This document shows, piece after piece, positions 3,112 to 49,247 of a stretch of 64,000 nt of DNA. The notes under the pieces are model-generated. The model was not told where the DNA came from, ran no database searches, and saw nothing but the letters and a program-made list of their open reading frames with translations. The DNA comes from Bispira polyomma (lineage: Eukaryota), in contig OZ287751.1 of the NCBI GenBank assembly GCA_965649765.1, forward strand, positions 18,104,001-18,168,000, given 5' to 3'. Both the position numbers and the translations under genes were made by a program. How positions within the stretch are numbered: the stretch's first letter is position 1; each line of letters begins with the position of its first letter.

Positions 3112-4106
3112 TGGTTTACTATGGCCATATTAAACAACCCAAAACTCTATATAGATTTGTTTAGGTTTCAAAACCTTCCATTATGACGTCACAATGCAAA
3201 TCTTATAGCCAAAAAGTTGTTACCATAAAAAAATAACTTTAAATATGCATTTATAAAGCACTAAAAATCGAGATTAAAATACCAGTGTGTACTTAGACAA
3301 TCTTTACTTAGACAATCTTTAAAAGATCTTGTCTCTGTATGACAGGAACTTTAATAAGATGTGGTGACCTGCTCCCGAGTTGGTTGGTGCCGAGTTTGTT
3401 TCGACCCTCATTCATTGAACTGTGTATATAGACCTTACCCTAATGGAGACAATAGACCACTGGCTGGTCCTTCTCTCTTCTCCACTAACAAAATGCACAG
3501 CCTTTGTGGACATCCGTCTCAGCATCTGCATCCTGCTTATGGCTGGTAGAGGACCTTCTTCTACCTCTTCTACCTCTTTTACAGGATCTACACTTTCACC
3601 ATTGTCCAGTTGTATGGAGACTCTGCTGGTTTCCCTCTGAAAATGGTAAGAAATACTTGTTTGTATTTATACTTTTTTATATTGTATTGACTCTGCCGGG
3701 TGCCTCTGAAAATGGTAATAAATAGTGTTTGTATTTTTTTTTTTTTAATCCAATGTGACGTGAGTATGACGTTTTCGTGGCTGATACGGGCCGGGTGATT
3801 CAATTCACTGTATCACCCAGCGTCCGTGAATGTGTATATAAAAACTGCAGTAATTTCAGTTTTATGCAATATTTCGAATAGAAAGTTTATAAAAGCTGTG
3901 GCTAATACAAAATATGGACCTTAAAGTACACACTGGTATTTTAATCTCGATTTTTAGTGCTTTATAAATGCATATTTAAAGTTATTTTTTTATGGTAACA
4001 ACTTTTTGGCTATAAGATTTGCATTGTGACGTCATAATGGAAGGTTTTGAAACCTAAACAAATCTATATAGAGTTTTGGGTTGTTTAATATGGCCATAGT
4101 AAACCA
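3112..4106. repeat. Perfect 183-bp inverted repeat (arms 3112-3294 and 3924-4106) enclosing AC exon 2
   Basis: The arms read as exact reverse complements by eye: tggtttactatggcc...gtgtgtactt / aagtacacac...ggccatagtaaacca. Confidence 0.95.
3439..3636 (-). CDS. Adenylate cyclase coding exon 2 (cytosolic N-terminus)
   Basis: Acceptor cttaccattttcag, donor AGG|gtaagg, 198 nt, phase 0-0, open frame RETSRVSIQLDNGESVDPVKEVEEVEEGPLPAISRMQMLRRMSTKAVHFVSGEERRTSQWSIVSIR. It joins exon 3 in frame. Confidence 0.75.
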
Positions 4107-4505
4107 ATTAAGTAATCCCTAGACTGTTTAAAAATTTTAGACTTGTATAAATTATAAGCATTATGCAATGATATTGCATACAAAACTCGATTTGAAGTGC
4201 CTCATAAGTTTGTATTTAAAGCTAATTGTTTAAGGTGCCAAGTCAGTTTGTAATCTATAATTTGCCGTGAATTTCAATATTTTGGGGCTCTTTGCGATTG
4301 TCTTGTGTTATATTTTGTAAGCATAATAATTATATACAGTATTATCAGTGGATAATAAATATAAAACAACCCTAGTGGTGTATATTAAACATTTATATGA
4401 CTCAATAAGATAAAACGCACAATACTCGCCCTACCGGGCTCCTATTGTACTGATTATCTTCTTTCGTCATATTTTTTTTTAATATACACCAATCGGGTAA
4501 TTTTA
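3740..4505. mobile_element. Probable non-autonomous DNA element(s) interrupting the 55-bp array; ends in an imperfect hairpin (about 4365-4505)
   Basis: It separates homologous repeat units (3620-3735 versus 4506-5157). Hairpin ggtgtatattaaa...atatgac / gtcatat...tttaatatacacc has a central gccctaccgggc. A similar hairpin lies at about 53135-53288. Confidence 0.5.
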
Positions 4506-5157
4506 CTATTGTATTAACTCTGGTGGTGTCCCTATGTAAATGGTATTAAATACTTTGTTTATATTGTATTGACTCTGGTGTTGTCCCTCTAAAAATGGTG
4601 TTAAATACTTTGTTTATATTGTATTGACTCTGGTGGTGTCCCTATGCAAATGGTATTAAATACTTTGTTTATATTGTATTGACTCTGGTGGTGTCCTTAT
4701 GCAAATGGTATTAAATACTTTGTTTATATTGTATTGACTCTGGTGTTGTCCCTCTAAAAATGGTGTTAAATACTTTGTTTGTATTGTATTGATTCTGGTG
4801 TTGTCGCTCTGAAAATGGTAATAAATACTTTGTATTGTATTGACTTTGCTGATGTCCTTCTGAAATTGATAATAAATACTTGTTTATATTGTATTGTATT
4901 GACTCAATCTGCAAGCGTCCCTCTGAAAATGGTAATTAATACTTTGTATTGTATTGACTCTGCAGGTGTCCCTCTGAAAGTGGTAATAAATACTTGTTTA
5001 TATTGTACTGTATTGACTCACTCTGCAAGTGTCCCTCTGAAAACGGTAATAATTAATTTGTTTGTATTGTAAATACTTGTTAATATTGTACTCTATTGAC
5101 TCACTCTGCAGGTGTCCCTCTGAAAATGGTAATAATTAGTTTGTTTGTATTGTATTG
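4506..5157. repeat. Minisatellite, 55-bp unit, about 11 copies, homologous to the exon-2 intron/exon junction
   Basis: gactctgg (gattctgg at 4791) recurs at 4571, 4626, 4681, 4736 and 4791. Consensus gactctggtggtgtccctctgaaaatggtaataaatactttgtttatattgtatt matches 3619-3690. Confidence 0.92.
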
Positions 5158-6994
5158 AAAATTATACTCACCAAATTTATTTCTACCCTATATATTGTAC
5201 TCAAACCACTACTTTATATTGACCCCCAACAGCTAAGCACCATCACTTAACTATTATTTCCCTACCTGAAGAGAGGCTTGGGGTGGCCATTTATTTCAAC
5301 TGTCCCAATTAAGTGAGAGAGGACCACCATTTTCAGTGGTCAGCTGCTTGTACCTGGTCACCCTAGATTAGGATCAAACCCAGGTCCTCTGTGTTCCTAA
5401 GAAGTGAAATCTCATTACCTACTTCGATTACAGATATTTTCTTTCTTTTAATTTGATTAAAGTTCTATCATTTCAAGTTAGATGATAAAATATTCATTTA
5501 GTACAGAGTTAGTGCAGGGAAAATTAAGTTCTGTTGAAAAAAGGTAATACAGCATGTAGAAATACATTTTCTATAAACGTTTAACATTAATATGTATATT
5601 TAACTTTCGAAAGGGTTGGGTGAAATAAAAGTAAGACTTATTAAGTGGGGTTTCGAGAATAGCTATTTACTTACTTTTATATATCTTGGTGCTATGCAGA
5701 AATTGACAATATAAAGTACAGCATTTTTACTTACTTGGATTTTGAGTAAAACTTAAGTAGTGGATTTTTGAGAAAACCAAATCTAAATAAACTTTATCAA
5801 GTCGAAAATTACACTTACTTACCAAAGTAAGTAAAAAAAAAATCATTTCTTTGAGAACACCGCCCTAGATGTTTAAAAATTGCATACTATTGTACATTTT
5901 GTTTCAGTGATTTATTCATTGAGTCTAAGTATCAGTACTTTGCTTGACAAATACAAAGACTAGTTCTGTATCTTAAACACATCGGTTGACAACAAGTGGA
6001 TTACCCTATTCTGTCATCCACCTTATAAGCTTTATTGACCATCACATTTATACTCGTATGTTTATATCTATTCTATCTTGTATCCCTGTTTTAGGAACTG
6101 CTGTTTTGGCAGTAAAATACTCTGTGAAATCTTACTCAACCAAGTTTTTTGTTTTAGTTTTGACTATTGGTGTTAGCTGTACAGTTTGCTCATACATGTA
6201 CCTGTAATGTCTAAAGTACCTATAATTCCACCTGATGTGTCTCTACAGGCGATTATAAGGACACACAAGGGATATATTGTAAAAAAAAAATCAGACAATA
6301 GTAAACTGCAAAACTGAGCTGTAACTACGTATCCAAATGTGTCTGTCGCCAGTTTACTCAGTGACACACATAAAGTGATAATTGTTTTTTCTATACATAG
6401 CAAGGGTGTGCTGATGACGTTTTAAGGTTGACTTCGTCTTGACAGACAAAAGCCTACGAACTAAATACGGTATTTCCTTATATAGTCTTCACAAATGTAA
6501 ACACTGAGCACAAATACAAGGAGCATTATCACAAAGTAGGCCAGATCTTTATAAAAGTCATAATAAGTAAACAATCTTTTGATAGTTTATAACTAGATGA
6601 AGTGGTACTTTGATGGTAATGGGTAGAAAGTTGTGAAGATAAGATGCTGTTTGGACTGCGCATTTTATACTGGGACTAAGTCATGTATTTGAAGTATTAT
6701 TGGATTTAAGCTCAAAATTAATACATAAAATATTATAGTTTTCCCTTTTACACTTTCAACATGTTTATGTCTTAAAAATAATAAAGTTTAAAAAAAAAAA
6801 CAAGCTTTATGACTTTCAGTTCAATATGACAGATGTTAGGAATGTGAGTCAAAGGGGGATTTGAACTCCGAATCTGTGGCAAAATACAAGGAAAAAATTG
6901 ATTTTACTTCTAGGAATAGTTGTTTTATGCAACAAAGGTTGATCACTAAAAAAAAAGTTAATGGTTGCATTGATGGTGTCACTTATACTAAAGT

Positions 6995-9352: not shown

Positions 9353-9460
9353 CTGAGAAGAGCATTCATCTCCATCTCCCATCAGTGGTTCATATTCCTG
9401 AGTTGAGGCCTCAAATCTCACTGCTTTAGCTTTTTTGGCTTTTGTGTTTGTACTTTCCAT
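9353..9460 (-). CDS. Adenylate cyclase first coding exon (candidate)
   Basis: aaaaATG with an in-frame TAA just upstream. Encodes MESTNTKAKKAKAVRFEASTQEYEPLMGDGDECSSQ, then CAG|gtaaaa. 108 nt, phase 0, compatible with exon 2. Confidence 0.6.
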
Positions 9461-14406: not shown

Positions 14407-17334
14407 GCACCTGCGGCTATCGACTTAGTCATAGCCCAGGACCTGGATGTTGCTGCCGTCTCCGAGACGTGGCTCAGCAGTAGGGATACGACATCCTTTT
14501 TATCGGATATTACTCCTCCGGGCTACAAATTTCATCAGTTCCCCAGGTTGCACAAACGCGGGGGAGGAGTTGGCATTTTTTTGAAAAATACCCTTTCCTG
14601 TGAAATTCTAAAAAACCAGTCCTACTCGTCTTTCGAACACATTTCATGCAAAATTTCAAACGGTTATCATTCATTCCTAGTTTCCTCCTTTTACAGACCA
14701 CCCATTCCTTCTTTAACTAGTTTTACTCAAGAGTTTTCCGAATTCCTTGAGACCCTTAACCTTCTCCCATTTGAAGCTATCATCCTTGGTGATTTCAACA
14801 TCAAGCTCAACATAGAAAATACTACGACAAAAGATTTCAACACCCTCCTCGACACTTTTGGGTTCTCACAGTTTATCTCTACTTCAACCCACATCCACAA
14901 TCACATACTCGATCTGGTAATCGCAAGACCAAATTCAAATCTCATCAGAGAATCATGGGTAACTGATGGGATTTCAGATCACCTAGCAACCTTCGCCTAT
15001 TTAAATTTACCAATACCTGCCTCACATAAACCTCGTGTCATAAAATATAGAAACATCAGAAAAATTAATATAAACAAATTCAGAGACGATATCCTGGAAA
15101 CTAATCTCATCAAACATCCATGCAAAAATGCTGAAAGCCTTAGCTTACAATACAATCACTGCCTTTCTACTGTCCTTGATAAACATGCGCCATGGGTATC
15201 AAAAACCCTTCCCCCAACTAACAACCATGAATGGACCAATGCCGCCATTACAGAATCCAAAAGACGCAAACGCCAACTTGAGCGTCAATGGCGACGCACA
15301 AAATCCTCCTTAGACAGAAGCCGTTACCGTATCACCACAAATAATTACAACAGGCTAATAACTGATGCCAAAAAGCAACACTACGACTCCATCATCACCG
15401 AAAATCAGGATAATCCCAAAAGGTTATGGGCCTCCATAAACAAAATTCTACATCAAACATCAGAGAAGGTTCTCCCCATAAACCACTGTCTTACTTTTTT
15501 AGCAGAAAAATTTGGAAAATTTTTTATAGAAAAAATCAGCAACATTCGTGACGCCTTCCCAACGATACATCACTTCAATCCTCCAGCCCCAGGATATAAG
15601 GTTTGTAACCTGTTTCATTTTAGTACACTGTCAGAGCTTGAAGTTCTGAAACTCATCAAATCCTCTACTATTAAATCTTGTAACTTAGATCCCATCCCAG
15701 CAGTTATTCTGAGTCAATGTCTTGACATTCTTGTCACACCCATAACAAATATATTAAATTTTTCTCTTCGGGATGGTGTCTTTCCCACCTGTTTCAAGAC
15801 GGCAAATGTAACTCCCTTGATTAAAAAACAAGGGCTTGATAAAAACCATCTCAAAAACTACAGACCGGTGTCAAACCTTAGCTTCGTCTCAAAAGTCATC
15901 GAGAAAGCTGTGGCTACACAAATTTCTGACCACCTTAATAGACAAAACATTGAAAATCGCCACCAGTCTGCTTATAGAAAATTTCACTCTACAGAAAGTG
16001 CCCTTTTTTCCATCAGCAATGATGTCAATCTTGCACTGGACCGCAACGACACAGTGGCCCTCACCCTTCTGGATCTCTCAGCTGCATTCGACACTATTGA
16101 TCATGTCCTGCTCTGCGACACTCTCAAGCAGTGGTTCGGTATAAATGGCAGTGTCCTTAAATGGATCAGATCCTACCTTACTCTTAGGGCACAAAGAATT
16201 AAACTAGATGATCACCTATCATCTTCCATAAAACTTCCATATGGAGTACCCCAGGGATCCGTCCTTGGTCCTCTACTTTTCACCCTTTATACACATCCTC
16301 TCAGCACTGTCATCAATAAACACAATATAAAACACCACGTGTATGCAGACGACACTCAAGTCTATTTCTCCCTCAATCCACAAAACGCAGATACTAACAT
16401 AGACCTACTTGCAGACTGTCTGTCTGATGTCCAGGCGTGGATGAACTACTCCAAACTAAAGTTTAACCCTGACAAAACAGAATTCATCCTCATAGGAAAC
16501 AAGAAAAACAGTGAACTTCTAAAATCTTTGTTTCCCATCTCCCTGCTGGGAAAAGACATACTACCTTCCGAAAATGCTAAAAACCTGGGTGTCACTTTTG
16601 ATTCAGCTTTTTCGTTCGATACTCATGTTGCCAACATCTGTCGCTCCTGATATTACCACATACGCGACATCAAAAGAATCAGAAACCACTTGTCCATGGA
16701 CACAGCGATAATTGTGGCAAATGCCCTTGTAAGTAGCCGCCTTGACTACTGCAATTCTCTCTTGTACAAAGCAAATAAGTCAAACATTAAAAAGCTCCAG
16801 TCCATCCAATACTACATATGTAGGGTCATTTTTCGCCTGGGTTGTCACACAGATGTTACTCCTTACCTCAAAAAATTACACTGGTTGCCCATTAAATCTC
16901 GAATTTTGTTTAAAATTCACGTTACCACTTTTAAGGCTGTAATCACTCAATAGCCACCCTACCTTGCCTCCCTTCTTTCCTTTAGTAACCACAAGAGAGG
17001 CAACAGACTCTCTGTCACTTCGGTCAGACCAATCAGAAAGGCGGGTTTCAGAGCGTTCTCCACCGCAGCTCCACGGTTATGGAACAGTCTCCCAGTTGAC
17101 CTCAGATCAGTTGACACACTATTCGGTTTTAGGAAAAAGCTCAAAACCTATCTTTTTAATCTTGCCTACCCACCTTAGCTTTCCTCGTGCACGCTCCCAC
17201 TTCCTTCCTTACGACTCTGCAATTTCCATGGACTTAATGATTGGACTAATGATTCTGCTGTTGCGCTTTAGAAGATGCCTAGCATTAATAAAGCGCATTA
17301 AAAATCTATAATAATAATAAATAATAATAATAAT
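14407..17334 (+). mobile_element. L2-clade LINE, 5'-truncated, near-intact ORF2 (APE endonuclease + RT) with two premature stops
   Basis: One frame from 14407 to 17178 carries SETW, GGGVG, GDFN, LDLV, SDH (EN); NYRPVS, LLDLSAAFDT, GVPQGSVLGP, YADDTQ (RT); LHWLP and WNSLP...KLKTYLF (L2-type C-terminus). Stops are TGA 16648-16650 and TAG 16951-16953. Tail is (taa)n. Confidence 0.95.
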
Positions 17335-18602: not shown

Positions 18603-20060
18603 TTTTTGCAGTCAATGTAAACTGCACTTTGAATCCCAGATGCATGCTGTTGAACACCTCTGATAAAATGTTGCTCACACAATAATAATATTATGCAGCT
18701 CCCTTTAGGATATGCAGAGTTTTGTCTATATCTCATAAATATCCACCATATCACATCATTTGTAATAAGATCAAGCGTTTGCACTTGCACCTGAGCTAGC
18801 GATTATAGGTGCGTACTTTAGGAAACTAATTAAAGTTTTTTTATTTGCGTTTTATGTCTGAGTTTGTATGTGCATTGTTGATTTCTCTAGACTGCCATGT
18901 TTTTTTTCATTATATTTTTAATAAAATAATAATATATCAGACTTTTTTAGCGCTTATTTTCATTGTAACGAATTCTAAGGCGCAAAAAAACCAGAGTCGA
19001 AAAACACAGGTGACAGACAGAAGGAAGTCGTCGTCAATGCGTCCACTGAGAATGGGAAAGAGACTATGGAGGGAATGCATCATTGAACAGATAGGTCTTT
19101 AAACTGTGCCGGAAGGAATACAGGGACGGAGCTGTCCTAATGTGTTGAGGCAAACTATTCCATAGGGTAGGGGCATCATTTGCGAAACTTTTATCAAAGT
19201 GATTTTTACAGTCAATGTAAACTGCACTTTGAATCCCAGATGCATGCTGTTGAACACCTCTGATAAAATGTTGCTCACACAATAATAATATTATGCAGCT
19301 CCCTTTAGGATATGCAGAGTTTTGTTTACAGCTTTTATCTTGTTATAACAAGATATATCATTTCCACAACTCAATTATCTCATCTCCACAAGATCAGCTC
19401 ATTGTAATGAAATTAAGTTATTATAAAAAGATAATTACGTTCATGATACAAATATGTCATCTCCACCATATCACATCATTTGTAATAAGATCAAACGTTT
19501 GCACTTGTACCTGAGCTAGCGATTATAGGTGCGTACTTTAGGAAACTAATTAAAGTTTTTTTATTTGCGTTTTATGTCTGAGTTTGTATGTGCGTTGTTG
19601 ATTTCTCTAGACTACCATGTTTTTTTCATTATATTTTTAATAAAATAATAATATATCAGACTTTTTTAGCGCTTATTTTCGTTGTAACGAACTCTAAGGC
19701 GCAAAAAAACCACAGCCAGAGTCGAAAAACATAGGTGACAGACAGAAGGGAATGCGTCCACTGAGAATGGGAAAGAGACTATGGAGGGAATAATAATATA
19801 TCAGACTTTTTTAGCGCTTATTTTCGTTGTAACGAACTCTAAGGCGCAAAAAAACCACAGCCAGAGTCGAAAAACATAGGTGACAGACAGAAGGGAATGC
19901 GTCCACTGAGAATGGGAAAGAGACTATGGAGGGAATGCATCATTGAACAGATAGGTCTTTAAACTGCGCCGGAAGGAATACAGGGACGGAGCTGTCCTAA
20001 TGTGTTGAGGCAAACTATTCCATAGGGTAGGGGCATCATTTGCGAAACTTTTATCAAAGT
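18603..20060. repeat. Tandem duplication of flank + L2 3' end (18603-19202 versus 19203-20060), with a further internal ~146-bp duplication (about 19645-19790 and 19791-19935)
   Basis: cagtcaatgtaaactgcactttgaatcc occurs twice; atatatcagacttttttagcgc...gagactatggagggaa occurs three times. Confidence 0.9.
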
Positions 20061-21144
20061 AAACCTTTGACCTGTGTACTTTGGACTTATATTTTGGAAC
20101 AAGAAGGAATATATTTGGGAGCAGCTCTCCTGGTATTGACATTGTACTTGTAGTAACTCAAGTGTGGTTCAAAGTATTTAGGCAAACCTGAATCGAGAAA
20201 CTTATATACTATTGTAGCAGTTTTAAAAACACACCGATACCTAATAGGGAGCCAGTGGAGTGACTTAAGAATCGGTGAAGCATTTAAAAGCTGAGCAGAA
20301 CAACTGGCCAGATGTGCCAATGAGTTCTGGATACATTGCATTTTCTTTAGGTCCTTTTTGGTCAAGCTGCGATACAGTGAATTGCAGTAGTCCAGTCTGC
20401 TACCAACCAGAGCATTTGCTGCAGTTATTGCAACCGATTTTGGAAGGTACCTCCTGATTCTCCTAAGGTCTCTGAGACCCATGAAGCATGACTTACACAC
20501 TGATTGGATATGACTGGAAAATGAAAAATCATTGTCAAACAAAACTCCCAGGTTCCTTACTTTATCAGTTGGGGATAACAGTGTCCAAAGAATGTTTGCA
20601 GGAAAAGAATTTGACAGTTCAGCACGTTGAGTACCCAACCCGAACAATATGAATTCGGTTTTAACAGGATTCAGCTTCAGCTTATTTAGCGCCATCCAAT
20701 TTTGAACATCTGAAGGACATCTGAAGGACTTCCAGGGCACCGATTGATGTGTTAGGAATAAGGTGCACGTAAATCTGTGTATCATCTGCATAGAGGTGAT
20801 ACTTCAGAGAAAAATAGGAGGAAATAATTTTGAAATTAGGAGTGGTCCAAGCACAGACCCTTGCGGCACACCGAATTTCAGCACTTGTAAGTCAGACAGA
20901 ATATCGCCAATTTTAATAAACTGGTACCTGTCTGACAAGTAGGAACAAACCATTGCAAGACAGAGTCCTTAAGACCAAACCAGGTTTTTAGTCTTCCAAT
21001 GAGGACATTGTCATCAATAGTGTCAAAAGCAGCTGATAAGTCTAACAGTACTAATGCAGTGGGAACGCCCTTTGATAAAGCCATATGAATATTGTTTTTA
21101 ATATAAAGCAGAGCTGTTTCAGTAGAATGGTATTTTTTATATGC
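19645..21144 (-). mobile_element. L2 LINE (second subfamily), 5'-truncated and frameshifted
   Basis: AYKKYHSTETALL, LLDLSAAFDT, KLKLNPVKTEFI, SRLDYCNSL, LHWLP, APTLWNSLP...LKTYLFNDAFPP*. Confidence 0.92.
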
Positions 21145-21150
21145 TTTTTC

Positions 21151-21692
21151 CAATAAGTCCCACATAAACAAGTTGCAGTCCATTCAAAACTATCTATGTA
21201 GAGTCATCTTTCGTTCGGGAATCCGTACTGATGTCACTCCATACCTCAAGAAACTTCACGGGCTTCCTATTCACTATCGAATCTTGTTTAAATTGCACGT
21301 AACCATTTTTAAAGCTGTTGTCTCTCAACAGCCTCACTACCTCGCTACTAAGCTCTCCTCCAGCAGCCTTAAAAGGGCAAAAAGACTCTGTTTTCTCTAA
21401 AAAACCCACCAAGAGGGTTGGATTTAGAGCCACGCCTACGTTATGGAACCGTCTTCCAGTTGAGCTCTTACTGCTCGATACACTTTCTGGTTTTAAGAAA
21501 AGGCTTAAAACCTATCTCTTCAGGCTCGCCTATCTGCTGCAGTCCTTCTCCTGGGTGCTGACGCATCCATCCTTACTACCTGGCTATGTTCTTTCATTTT
21601 TCTATTGGCTGATTGATTCTGATGTTGCTCCTTGGAAGATGCCTAGCATCAATAAGGCGCGTTAAAAATGTACAATACAATACAATACAATA
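21151..21692 (+). mobile_element. L2 LINE 3' fragment (related to the 14.4-kb subfamily) with (tacaa)n tail
   Basis: QSIQNYLCRVIFR...VTPYLKKLH.LPI, LWNRLP...FKKRLKTYLF; the 3' UTR gaagatgcctagcat...gcg..ttaaaaat matches 17271-17305. Confidence 0.9.
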
Positions 21693-35769: not shown

Positions 35770-37655
35770 AAACTTTGGCAAAAGCTAAATAGCACCCTCC
35801 ACTGTAAAAAAACAGACTATACTACCCGAAAATTGCAATAGCAAATCACTGGCAAACATTTTTAGTACTTTTTTCACTGATAAAATTACCAGAATCCGTG
35901 ACGGTTTTACATTAGCCGCCCCAAATGCCCCTTTACCAACAGCTCCACCAACCGTCTTCAACTGTTTCTCCAAAGTAACTGTTGATGAAGTCAGAAAATT
36001 ATACTGGCATCACCCGTAAAATCTTGCTTGCTAGATCTGTGGCCCACATTCCTTGTTAAGGAATGTATTGACATTTTATTGCCATCAATCACAAAACTTA
36101 TCAATCTCTCGTTGGTAAATGGCATCTTTCCAGATGATTTTAAAAAGGCCATTGTCACTCCTTTAATAAAAAAACCTTCTCTACCAAAGGCTGACTTGAA
36201 AAATTACCGTCCTGTCTCAGGCCTTTGCTATATCTCTAAGTTGGTAGAACGCGCGGTTGCCTTATAGATCAAACAACATGTTGACGTCAGCAATCTGTCC
36301 AATAAGTATCAGTCAGCGTACAAAAGTGGTCATTCTACTGAGACTGCACTTCTCTGCATCAAAAATGATGTTCATACATCTTTATCCAAAGGTATGCCTA
36401 CTGCCTTCATACTGCTGGATCTGTCAGCAGCCTTTGATATTATTGATCACAAAGTTCTTCTTGAGTGTCTGATAGATTCCAATCAGTCAAAATTGGCAAT
36501 ATCTTATCCGACCCAACATGGTTAAAATTTGGTGTTCCCCAAGGTTCCGTCCTGGGTCCCATTTTGTTTTCCATGTACACCACTCCACTCAGCAAGATTA
36601 TTGCTGCATACAAAAACATAAACTTTCACTTCTATGCTGATGATACCCAACTGTATATCCACCTTACACCTGACTCTGCCAAGGCAGCTTTCACTTCCTT
36701 ACAGAACTGCCTTGTTGATGTATAACACTGGATGGCAGCAAATAAACTCAAGCTGAATCCTGAGAAGACTGAGTTTATTTTGTTTGGCTCCAAGTCGCAA
36801 CGGGAAAAATTGTCATGTTGTTTCCACTTGGCATTCTTGGCAGCAGGTTTTCTCCAGCTGACAAAGTACGAAACCTGGGTGTGGTGTTCGACTCTGAATT
36901 CTCCTTCTTTAACCATGTCGCAGCGGTGTGTAGATCATGTTTTGTTGGCCTCCGTGATTTCAGGCGGATTCGACGCTATCTTTCCAAATCCACTGCAATC
37001 ACTGTTGCCAATGCTTTGGTCAGCAGCAGGCTTGATTACTGCAACTTTTTGTTCCGTTCCTTATCTCGTAGTGATCTCAGACGCCTTCAGAATATCCAAC
37101 ACTCGTTGGCACGTATTGTGACCAAAACTTCTAAATTTTCCCACATTACTCCTGTACTCAAGTCACTGCACTGGCTCCCAAGAAAATATCGTGTTGCTTT
37201 CAAAACAGCAACAATAATATATAAATTTCGAAATTCTGGATTACCCACTTATTTTAGCCCTCATCTATCCAAATATACATGCTCAGTCAGGACAAGGCGC
37301 AGTAACCCTGATAAATTATACCTTAACATTCTCACTTTCGACCCTCGCATCCACAAATCCAAAGTTCAGTTCAATCACTGCCTAGCTCATGATGGCCCCC
37401 TCATTTGGAACAGCCTACCTGATCATGTTCGCCTGGCTCAAACTTTCTCCTCTTTCAGGAGTAAGCTGAAGGCCTATCTTTTTGAACAGGCTTTTCCACC
37501 TTAGCCGTCACAACCATTTACGGTAGTCTCCCTGGTTACGACTTCCATCCGTCCACTATTATTGATTTTCGATTAACGTTTTGGGTTTGTTGCGCCTTAG
37601 AATTTGTTGTACAAAGATTAAGCGCTGTAAAAGTACGACTAGATTAGATTAGATT
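35770..37655 (+). mobile_element. L2 LINE, 5'-truncated, with (agatt)n tail, in TMEM208 intron 4
   Basis: KLWQKLNSTLH, NYRPVS, GVPQGSVLGP, FYADDTQ, SRLDYCN, LHWLP, WNSLP...KLKAYLFEQAFPP*; several stops and frameshifts. Confidence 0.93.
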
Positions 37656-47370: not shown

Positions 47371-47567
47371 AGGGGCTTTCACAATGGATCGTTGATGGTG
47401 TGTGACAAAATTTAACATAATTAACTCTTATTAGCATTTGTTTTAGAAAAAATCTAAGGTGGAATTTTAAAATGGATTATCAAGGATGTTATTGGATTTA
47501 ACAAAGACATAATTTCACCCCGCTCGCATCTTAAATTTGGCTAAGAATTTTAAATGAGGATCGCAAA

Positions 47568-49247
47568 ATGTCCACCAAAGTGACTCTCCCGGCTCAGCGA
47601 CAAAGATCTTTTGGAGCATCAGGCGAAAGTCTGTATCACATAGACATGCCATCACACCACTTGCCCCCACTGGCTAGTCAGACTGTTGGAGGTGGAAGCC
47701 ACCACGTAGCGGGTGGGGTGAAGGTCCAGCAGCTTTTTGAAGATCCTAAACACCACGACAATCAACACGAAAAGAAACCAAGGGAAATAGCAAATCAAAA
47801 TGGCGGCGCCCCCAAGGTACAGGCTGAAAACACGTCCTTGTTGCCATCAGTTCGCCCTCCCTCAAGCGTTGGCAGCACTACAAGTAAAAATTCTGCCAAA
47901 AGGGCCCTTGCCCAGAGTCCAGAAACGGCCATGAAGCAGTACATGCACAAGTTAAGTTCCTTTGAGCATCATGAAATATTTAATTACCCACAAATCTTTT
48001 TTGTTGGCCCCAATGCTAAGAAGAGACAAGGCGTCATCGGAGGTGCCAATAATAATGGCTTTGATGATGATCAGGGATCGTATGTGCATGTTCCTCACGA
48101 CCACGTTGCATACCGCTATGAAGTATTGAAGGTGATTGGAAAGGGAAGTTTTGGCCAAGTTGTTAAAGCATATGATCACAAGAGCCATCAGCACATTGCC
48201 GTAAAAATGGTGAGAAATGAGAAGAGATTCCACCGTCAGGCTCAAGAAGAAATCAGAATTTTAGAACATTTGCGAAAACAAGATAAAGAAAATACAATGA
48301 ATATAATACACATTTTTGAACATTTTACCTTTCGGAATCATATCTGCATTACATTCGAGCTTCTGAGCATGAATCTGTATGAACTGATCAAGAAAAACAA
48401 ATTCCAGGGATTTAGTCTGCAACTTGTTAGAAAATTTGCTCACTCAATGTTGCAGTGCCTTGATGCGTTGTACAAAAATAGGATCATACACTGTGATTTG
48501 AAGCCAGAAAATGTCCTGTTAAAACAACAAGGGAGAAGTGGTATCAAGGTTATTGACTTTGGTTCAAGTTGTTATGAACACCAGAGAATATACACATACA
48601 TTCAGTCTCGGTTTTACCGGGCACCTGAGGTTATTTTGGGTGCCAAGTATGGGATGCCTATTGATATGTGGAGTCTAGGTTGCATCCTGGCAGAATTGCT
48701 TACTGGATATCCCTTATTCCCTGGTGAAGATGAGGGGGACCAGTTGGCAACCATTGTTGAACTTGGGGGAATGCCACCTCAGAAACTACTTGAGCAGTCC
48801 AAGCGGGCGAGAAACTTCATCAGTTCCAAAGGATTTCCGAGGTACTGTACTGTCACAACAGGGACTGACGGTCAGGTACAACTTACTGGTGGTCGCTCAA
48901 GGCGGGGAAAATACCGTGGGCCCCCAGGATCTAAAGATCTTGTCACAGCCTTAAAAGGTACTGATGACCCTATGTTCATAGATTTCATGAAGAGATGTCT
49001 TGAATGGGATCCAGCTGTCAGAATTACACCTCCACAGGCCCTTCGACATGCATGGTTAAGACGGCGCCTGCCTAAGCCCCCACCAAATGAAACTGATATC
49101 AAGGGAAGACGTCAGTCTGCATCACGAAGTAGTGTGAATAAATATAACAATGCTAGCGGCAAAACCCGTCTCATTGCTACTTCAGAAGATGTTGTTCCTT
49201 CAATTAATGCTAGGCAAAAATTGCCACAGATCGGATCAACTATGTGA
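47568..49247 (+). CDS. DYRK2: Dual-specificity tyrosine-phosphorylation-regulated kinase 2/3-like (class 2 DYRK), uninterrupted ORF, 559 aa
   Basis: NAPA-like region ([19 protein letters not shown]), DH box (FDDDQGSY), [19 protein letters not shown], activation-loop [13 protein letters not shown] and the class-2 insert [13 protein letters not shown]. Confidence 0.96.

Follow-up and report, generated by a model that had tools for sequence, protein, structure and literature searches.

The window, i.e., the whole 64,000-nt stretch of Bispira polyomma DNA analysed here, contains on its minus strand the first exons of a gene which, judging from its sequence, is an intact membrane adenylate cyclase of the AC2/4/7 type. 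The gene was rebuilt with the neighbouring stretches and comprises 22 coding exons and 1,197 codons with zero stops, the acceptor of exon 15 being of uncertain placement; its product shows 37-39% identity to two AC2-like proteins of Lingula, PF00211 is matched by both cyclase domains, and AC2 and AC4 are the best named matches. No known cyclase microexon is named in the part of PMC13281805 that was available. The first coding exon (9353-9460, minus strand) consists of 36 codons and, ending in phase 0, is followed by the donor GTAAAA; an acceptor-like site upstream of it suggests an additional non-coding exon. Exon 2 (3439-3636, minus strand) is 198 nt long, is phase 0-0 and begins with the residues RETSR, while exon 3 (KEFREADIEDIY...) is located at 880-1050 on the same strand, after which the gene runs on past the window. 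Exon 2 is flanked by a 183-nt inverted repeat, whose arms (3112-3294 and 3924-4106) are 100% complementary and have 629 nt between them; pairing of the arms around this phase 0-0 exon could favour its skipping or the formation of circular RNA.

Two further elements are found on the plus strand of the window: a single-exon gene for a DYRK2-type kinase (47535-49244), with its best named match in Ridgeia piscesae (79%), and a long endonuclease/reverse-transcriptase-like frame (14407-16950), which we take to be a LINE-type element and of which decayed pieces occur at about 20000-21500 and 36000-37500.

Intron 1 of the cyclase gene, 5,716 nt long, lies between exon 1 (9460-9353) and exon 2 (3636-3439) and contains a minisatellite of 12 copies: 11 units of 51-83 nt, with a main period of 55, occupy the minus strand at 5159-4502, and a twelfth is located at 3738-3692. 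The repeat unit consists of the end of intron 1 together with the first 30-35 nt, approximately, of exon 2, which is thus the source of the repeat. The 24-mer around the exon 2 acceptor is present in 11 copies, each with 2-5 mismatches; the acceptor AG is kept in 8 of the 11 units at 4502-5159 (CAG in six, TAG in two), and the other three have CAT. High-copy repeat DNA, at 3750-4500 (approximate ends) and with a contig depth in the thousands, separates this block from exon 2 and from the twelfth copy, unit X (3692-3738, minus strand). Unit X stands beside the real acceptor and has an acceptor score of 9.1 on the matrices described below; its AG is followed after 14 nt by GTCAAT, and read-through from it hits a stop.

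The units have not evolved independently of each other: units 7 and 10 are equal over 34 nt, units 8, 9 and 11 differ by 1-2 positions and units 1, 2 and 3 by 2-4, whereas 6-9 differences separate units 1-3 from units 7-11. Units 1 and 2 represent one recent 83-nt duplication (94%). The array is a mirage minisatellite, as seen from four features: a unit spanning a splice junction, the unit size, splice signals that are partly kept and concerted evolution of sub-blocks. Upstream of unit 1, at 5160-5225, faint unit-like words (GTCAATA, GAGTACAAT and GTGAGT) can be recognised in decayed form, which suggests that older copies once extended there.

The two most distal units contain the 15-nt sequences that a first-pass annotation had proposed as candidate microexons, and both its letters and its coordinates are correct. 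On the minus strand, unit 1 reads ttttcag/AGGGACACCTGCAGA/gtgagt at 5119-5105 and unit 2 reads ttttcag/AGGGACACTTGCAGA/gtgagt at 5036-5022; both encode RDTCR, differ by a single synonymous base and are spaced by 68 nt (5037-5104). Their flanks are phase 0-0, as that annotation had stated, since exon 1 ends and exon 2 starts in phase 0. The branch-point-like actaat that it had noted ahead of the first candidate is also present, as ACTAAT at 5135-5140 on the minus strand; it belongs to unit 1 only, unit 2 having ATTAAT in its place. In the whole 1.04-Gb genome, three occurrences of a 23-nt core of the candidates are found, all within the intron 1 array. The predicted RNA fold of 5170-4990, computed with no shuffled control, is unremarkable.

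Tandem repeats are generally error-prone in assemblies, and the array, or its GTGAGT units, might accordingly have been an artefact. However, contigs from three DNA runs, compared over 3400-6700, span 4751-5376 or more, thus crossing units 1-7, with 0 differences; the runs come from one study, which is probably the source of the assembly, and as contigs they display a single allele; no RNA run was among the three listed, which has no bearing on expression. The array is thus real DNA, and an assembly error is so improbable that it hardly needs to be considered further.

Comparison of the units with exon 2 indicates how the array may have originated. Thirteen of the first 15 nt of unit 1 are identical to the start of exon 2, and the likeness continues for about 20 nt past the putative donor. 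The stretch of exon 2 from nt 16 to nt 37, when matched to the tails of units 3, 5, 7 and 9, was equalled by only 1, 0, 1 and 1, respectively, of 210 other coding words starting with GT; for the tail of unit X the match was not significant, 18 of the 210 words scoring as high. Because the likeness to exon 2 extends beyond the donor, the "intron" following each candidate, including the 5′ part of the 68-nt spacer, is decayed exon 2 sequence. We propose that the array was seeded by a tandem duplication across the junction of intron 1 and exon 2, perhaps, as inferred from sequence, at the ATACAA common to both sides of the junction, and that it was later split by repeat DNA. The earlier suggestion that the cassettes of 15 nt arose by tandem amplification, as paralogues of RETSR at the beginning of exon 2, is borne out.

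The donors appear to have a different history from the one first assigned to them. In exon 2, nt 16-17 are the GT that starts a Val codon (AGA/GTCTCC), and most units have AGA/GTCAAT at the same place; unit 3 (4959-4973, minus strand), for instance, has 15 nt identical to those of unit 1, followed by GTCAAT with a donor score of -0.5. The tetranucleotide GAGT is doubled in units 1, 2 and 4 and single in the remaining units. GTGAGT is therefore likely the product of one 4-nt slip, by which GAGT was doubled to create the donor; it would have spread by copying to units 1, 2 and 4 and then have been lost once, in unit 4 (4904-4922, minus strand), where the doubling is accompanied by G>T (TTGAGT). 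The claim that the other units had lost the donor holds for unit 4, the sole true loss, and fails for the units with GTCAAT: this is the common state, it matches the GTC of exon 2, and such units probably never had a donor to lose, so that the direction of change would be reversed.

Since the position of the GT is set by the Val codon of exon 2, the 15-nt in-frame length is inherited, and it is therefore no sign of selection; by chance, an in-frame length is expected in one case out of three. Neither is the shared RDTCR peptide a sign of selection, because unit 3 has the identical 15 nt with no donor. Selection on RDTCR was considered and set aside: one synonymous difference between two recent duplicates gives no power, and the 15 nt of the donor-less unit 3 are the same.

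The first-pass annotation had also considered that a real microexon seeded the array; an old, functional microexon would then have been copied with its flanks, and the remaining units would be its decayed copies. The location of the best donor and the best branch point at the far 5′ end, beside unique intron, would agree with this origin. It is nonetheless very unlikely, as the "intron" tail of the unit is exon 2 coding sequence, with a likeness that extends about 20 nt past the donor, exon 2 and the majority of units, whether before or after the inserted repeat, have GTC, and junction-seeded arrays are common at exons of this genome. Moreover, no R[DE]T[CS]R motif was found in 120 cyclases, an argument of little weight given that no alignment of exon 2 with their N-termini is obtained.

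These 120 proteins were drawn from the 526 cyclases matched by an exon 9 query, and in none of them could the N-terminus be aligned to exons 1-2. An exon 4 query retrieved no orthologue among 801 candidates, an exon 2 query no relative among 1.84 billion representatives, and 80 metagenome loci included no close relative and none aligning to exons 1-2. The ETSR of a Lingula protein was examined as a possible counterpart of the exon 2 start and rejected: its distance to the next conserved block differs, and the match was taken as chance.

Arrays of the same kind were found elsewhere. The cyclase gene itself contains a second mirage, in which the terminal part of exon 14 and the GTAAGT donor following it are repeated in five copies into intron 14 (C4:18089636-18090135, corresponding to L007 5636-6135). 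Inside this gene alone no enrichment appeared, arrays being present at 2 of its 42 junctions, compared with 6.3% of intron places having at least three local copies. Among the other cyclase genes (L021-L080), 15 of 189 de-duplicated junctions (about 8%) are the end unit of an array that extends intron-wards, the corresponding counts being 152 of 13,020 for places chosen at random and 49 of 3,933 for random AG/GT sites; relative to random places the excess is about sevenfold (odds ratio 7.3, Fisher p 1.6e-8), in a test that relies on automatic placement, covers one gene family and includes at least one misplaced paralogue (the L031 donor). Short introns cannot explain this sevenfold excess, since introns in this genome are of considerable length (no less than 198 nt in the 47 gaps measured); why arrays ending at splice junctions are in excess in a long-intron genome is a separate question on the origin of mirages.

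With looser limits, 18 arrays with 74 copies were collected from these other genes, partly non-independent, and 64 of the 74 copies keep the AG or GT. Twenty copies form AG..GT pseudo-exons at the same cut-offs, three of them with a length that is a multiple of three; the only ones not exceeding 27 nt are of 11 and 19 nt, both out of frame. Thus, among the 20 arrays seen, the RDTCR pair represents the only in-frame pseudo-exons of 27 nt or less, a result that fits chance and yet makes this pair the best candidate for real use.

A mirage origin was considered also for intron 8 of the cyclase gene (696 nt, L006 2355-3050, at an AG/GT site), and was discarded as this intron contains no repeat and no exon likeness. 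In genomic DNA of a close relative (protein P0127, 96% over exon 9) the frame passes through exons 8 and 9 with intron 8 absent, a difference that may be due to a paralogue, to loss in the relative or to recent gain in the present gene.

Splice strength was estimated with position matrices trained on the 21 introns of the host gene and on the junctions of 119 other cyclase exons, which were placed by an automatic procedure. The acceptor score is 7.4 for unit 1 (26th percentile of 129) and 4.1 for unit 2 (4th), compared with 8.6 for the real exon 2 acceptor, and the donor AGA/GTGAGT of both units scores 5.0 (5th percentile of 133); these percentiles are harsh, since the reference sites are partly score-selected and a position matrix underrates donors with no G at -1. 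Within the gene itself, 5 of the 21 real acceptors score below the acceptor of unit 1, and 3 of the 21 real donors below its donor; CCA/GTGAGT, the real donor of exon 11, is one of the latter. Look-alikes are also present: in the 37,211 intron bases of the gene, AG..GT pairs 3-27 nt apart, counted irrespective of stops and phase, number 17 others at the unit 2 cut-offs (seven with a multiple-of-three length) and five others at the unit 1 cut-offs (three with such a length). Hence, the repeat itself is no chance event, but an AG..GT pair of such size and score is expected by chance.

Microexons of the eMIC/SRRM3/4 type have a size limit of 3-27 nt. The two candidates, being 15 nt long, phase 0-0 and stop-free, lie within this frame-preserving range. 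The features of the upstream sequence are mixed: TGC is absent from the 45 nt upstream of units 1 and 2, no UCUC was found at the candidates in the sequence examined, and pyrimidines account for 12 of 20 positions, as compared with 9-18 at ordinary acceptors of the gene. CTAAT is located 17 nt before the AG in unit 1, whose branch point is the best one in the array, and is missing in unit 2; the AG-free zones measure 45 nt (unit 1) and 37 nt (unit 2). As for the splicing machinery, a profile match to SRRM_C was obtained in an RS-rich exon elsewhere in the genome (28.7 bits against a cut-off of 27, E 0.002; L081 1450-1670, C8:35482011-35482175), which is a candidate eMIC exon of Srrm2/3/4. Taken together, unit 1 could be spliced but would lack a typical microexon enhancer. 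The link to a neural microexon programme proposed in the first-pass annotation is not supported, there being no UGC, a short pyrimidine tract and no sign of conservation among the sequences searched. A regulatory Cys motif, which it had also proposed, is likewise unsupported.

That the two units might be mutually exclusive, with the short spacer preventing their joint use, had been raised as well. The spacer is indeed shorter than all 68 introns measured, i.e., the 21 of the host gene (minimum 421 nt) and 47 gaps elsewhere (minimum 198 nt), and since it is shorter than every one of them a +30 nt product with double inclusion is unlikely. This arrangement is nevertheless highly improbable: the two peptides are identical, so the protein would be unchanged by the exclusion, unit 2 has no CTAAT and an acceptor that ranks at the 4th percentile, and the two units derive from a single recent 83-nt duplication.

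More credit, although still limited, can be given to the reading in which unit 1 (less likely unit 2) is a new microexon, spliced in, perhaps with a neuronal bias, so as to add RDTCR before RETSR; a mirage would then have given rise to both an exon and an intron, as in the lancelet globin model. Unit 1 is the copy joined to unique intron, and combines CTAAT 17 nt before the AG with an AG-free zone of 45 nt, phase 0-0 and a donor that could be used. Fly targets of eMIC are reported to carry UGC and extended tracts rich in UCUC, together with CUAAY branch points, long zones devoid of AG, and weak donors (bioRxiv 2021.02.24.432780), and in human SRRM3/4 targets UGC is reported in 74-79% and not as strictly needed (bioRxiv 2024.09.17.613571); moreover, an SRRM_C exon is present in the genome and the model has already been published as a hypothesis (PMC3087553, Figure 7 legend). 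On the other side, UGC and UCUC are missing and a pyrimidine content of 12/20 is ordinary, the in-frame length is a one-in-three event fixed by the Val codon of exon 2, the donor apparently came from one slip and is already lost in unit 4, and five other intron sites in the gene equal or exceed the unit 1 scores. On balance it is doubtful, as far as the letters of the DNA can tell, that we are observing a microexon caught at birth, in which a mirage copy of the exon 2 acceptor gained a donor by a 4-nt slip and came to be spliced in, perhaps by the neural eMIC machinery.

Should unit 1 be included, it would be the first observed case of a mirage turning into an exon in the literature searched, where the model was drawn for lancelet globins; in that search, mostly of open-access sources, no report was found of a microexon shown to derive from a mirage or a minisatellite. 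A single locus would then display each step from repeat to microexon, namely the junction duplication, the 4-nt slip and the in-frame cassette, and the arrays found at about 8% of junctions could supply new exons. A mirage whose copies are skipped is, on the other hand, ordinary.

The reading that we prefer is the latter: units 1 and 2 are probably pseudo-microexons within a mirage repeat, and splicing is likely to bypass them and use the real acceptor at 3636. An exon of 15 nt would be too short for definition without a microexon enhancer, so that exon 1 would be joined to exon 2, and unit 1 would undergo at most trace inclusion. By analogy, skipping is supported by silent precedents, that is, the mirages of lancelets and the pseudo-donors of human F7.

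In lancelets, mirages have been described as tandem repeats of intron-exon boundaries in BflGb6, BflGb9, Adh3, troponin C and PGBD5 (PMC3087553; PMC3902484), with units of 10-160 bp (PMC3087553). As in BflGb6, the unit of the cyclase array is formed by the 3′ end of an intron together with the 5′ portion of exon 2 (PMC3087553); as in the lancelet mirages in general, splice signals are kept in many copies and not in all of them, sub-blocks co-evolve, and the unit length of 51-83 nt is within the reported range. Unlike them, the cyclase array is split by repeat DNA, and a 4-nt doubling provided two of its units with a good donor, thus giving in-frame 15-nt cassettes. Splicing of the lancelet mirages was checked by RT-PCR: for BflGb6, RT-PCR suggested regular splicing, the authors' model being one in which a unit is turned into an exon (PMC3087553), and according to PMC3902484 no aberrant mRNA results from the mirages of Adh and troponin C.

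With the SRRM3/4 (eMIC) microexons described in the two preprints cited above, the candidates share the size and the frame-preserving length and, in the case of unit 1, a weak donor in addition to a CUAAY branch point; unlike those microexons, they lack UGC and a UCUC-rich or long pyrimidine tract, and they are derived from a repeat. Human F7 provides a similar case on the opposite side of the exon: the 37-bp VNTR of intron 7 contains functional donor copies that are normally silent, and its first unit crosses the exon-intron boundary, like the unit found here (PMC1557585). That VNTR, however, lies on the donor side, while the cyclase array is on the acceptor side, and no complete pseudo-exon is described in the accessible part of the F7 report (PMC1557585). 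Finally, a functional intron of low efficiency can arise by tandem duplication, as in the Rogers model and in ATP2A1 (PMC3265369), where, similarly to the cyclase array, the duplication places an AG and a GT such that the sequence between the copies could be spliced out. In ATP2A1 the duplicated coding piece is removed and the protein is unchanged (PMC3265369); in the cyclase gene, the acceptor is copied from a real one, and the protein would become five residues longer if the new donor were used.
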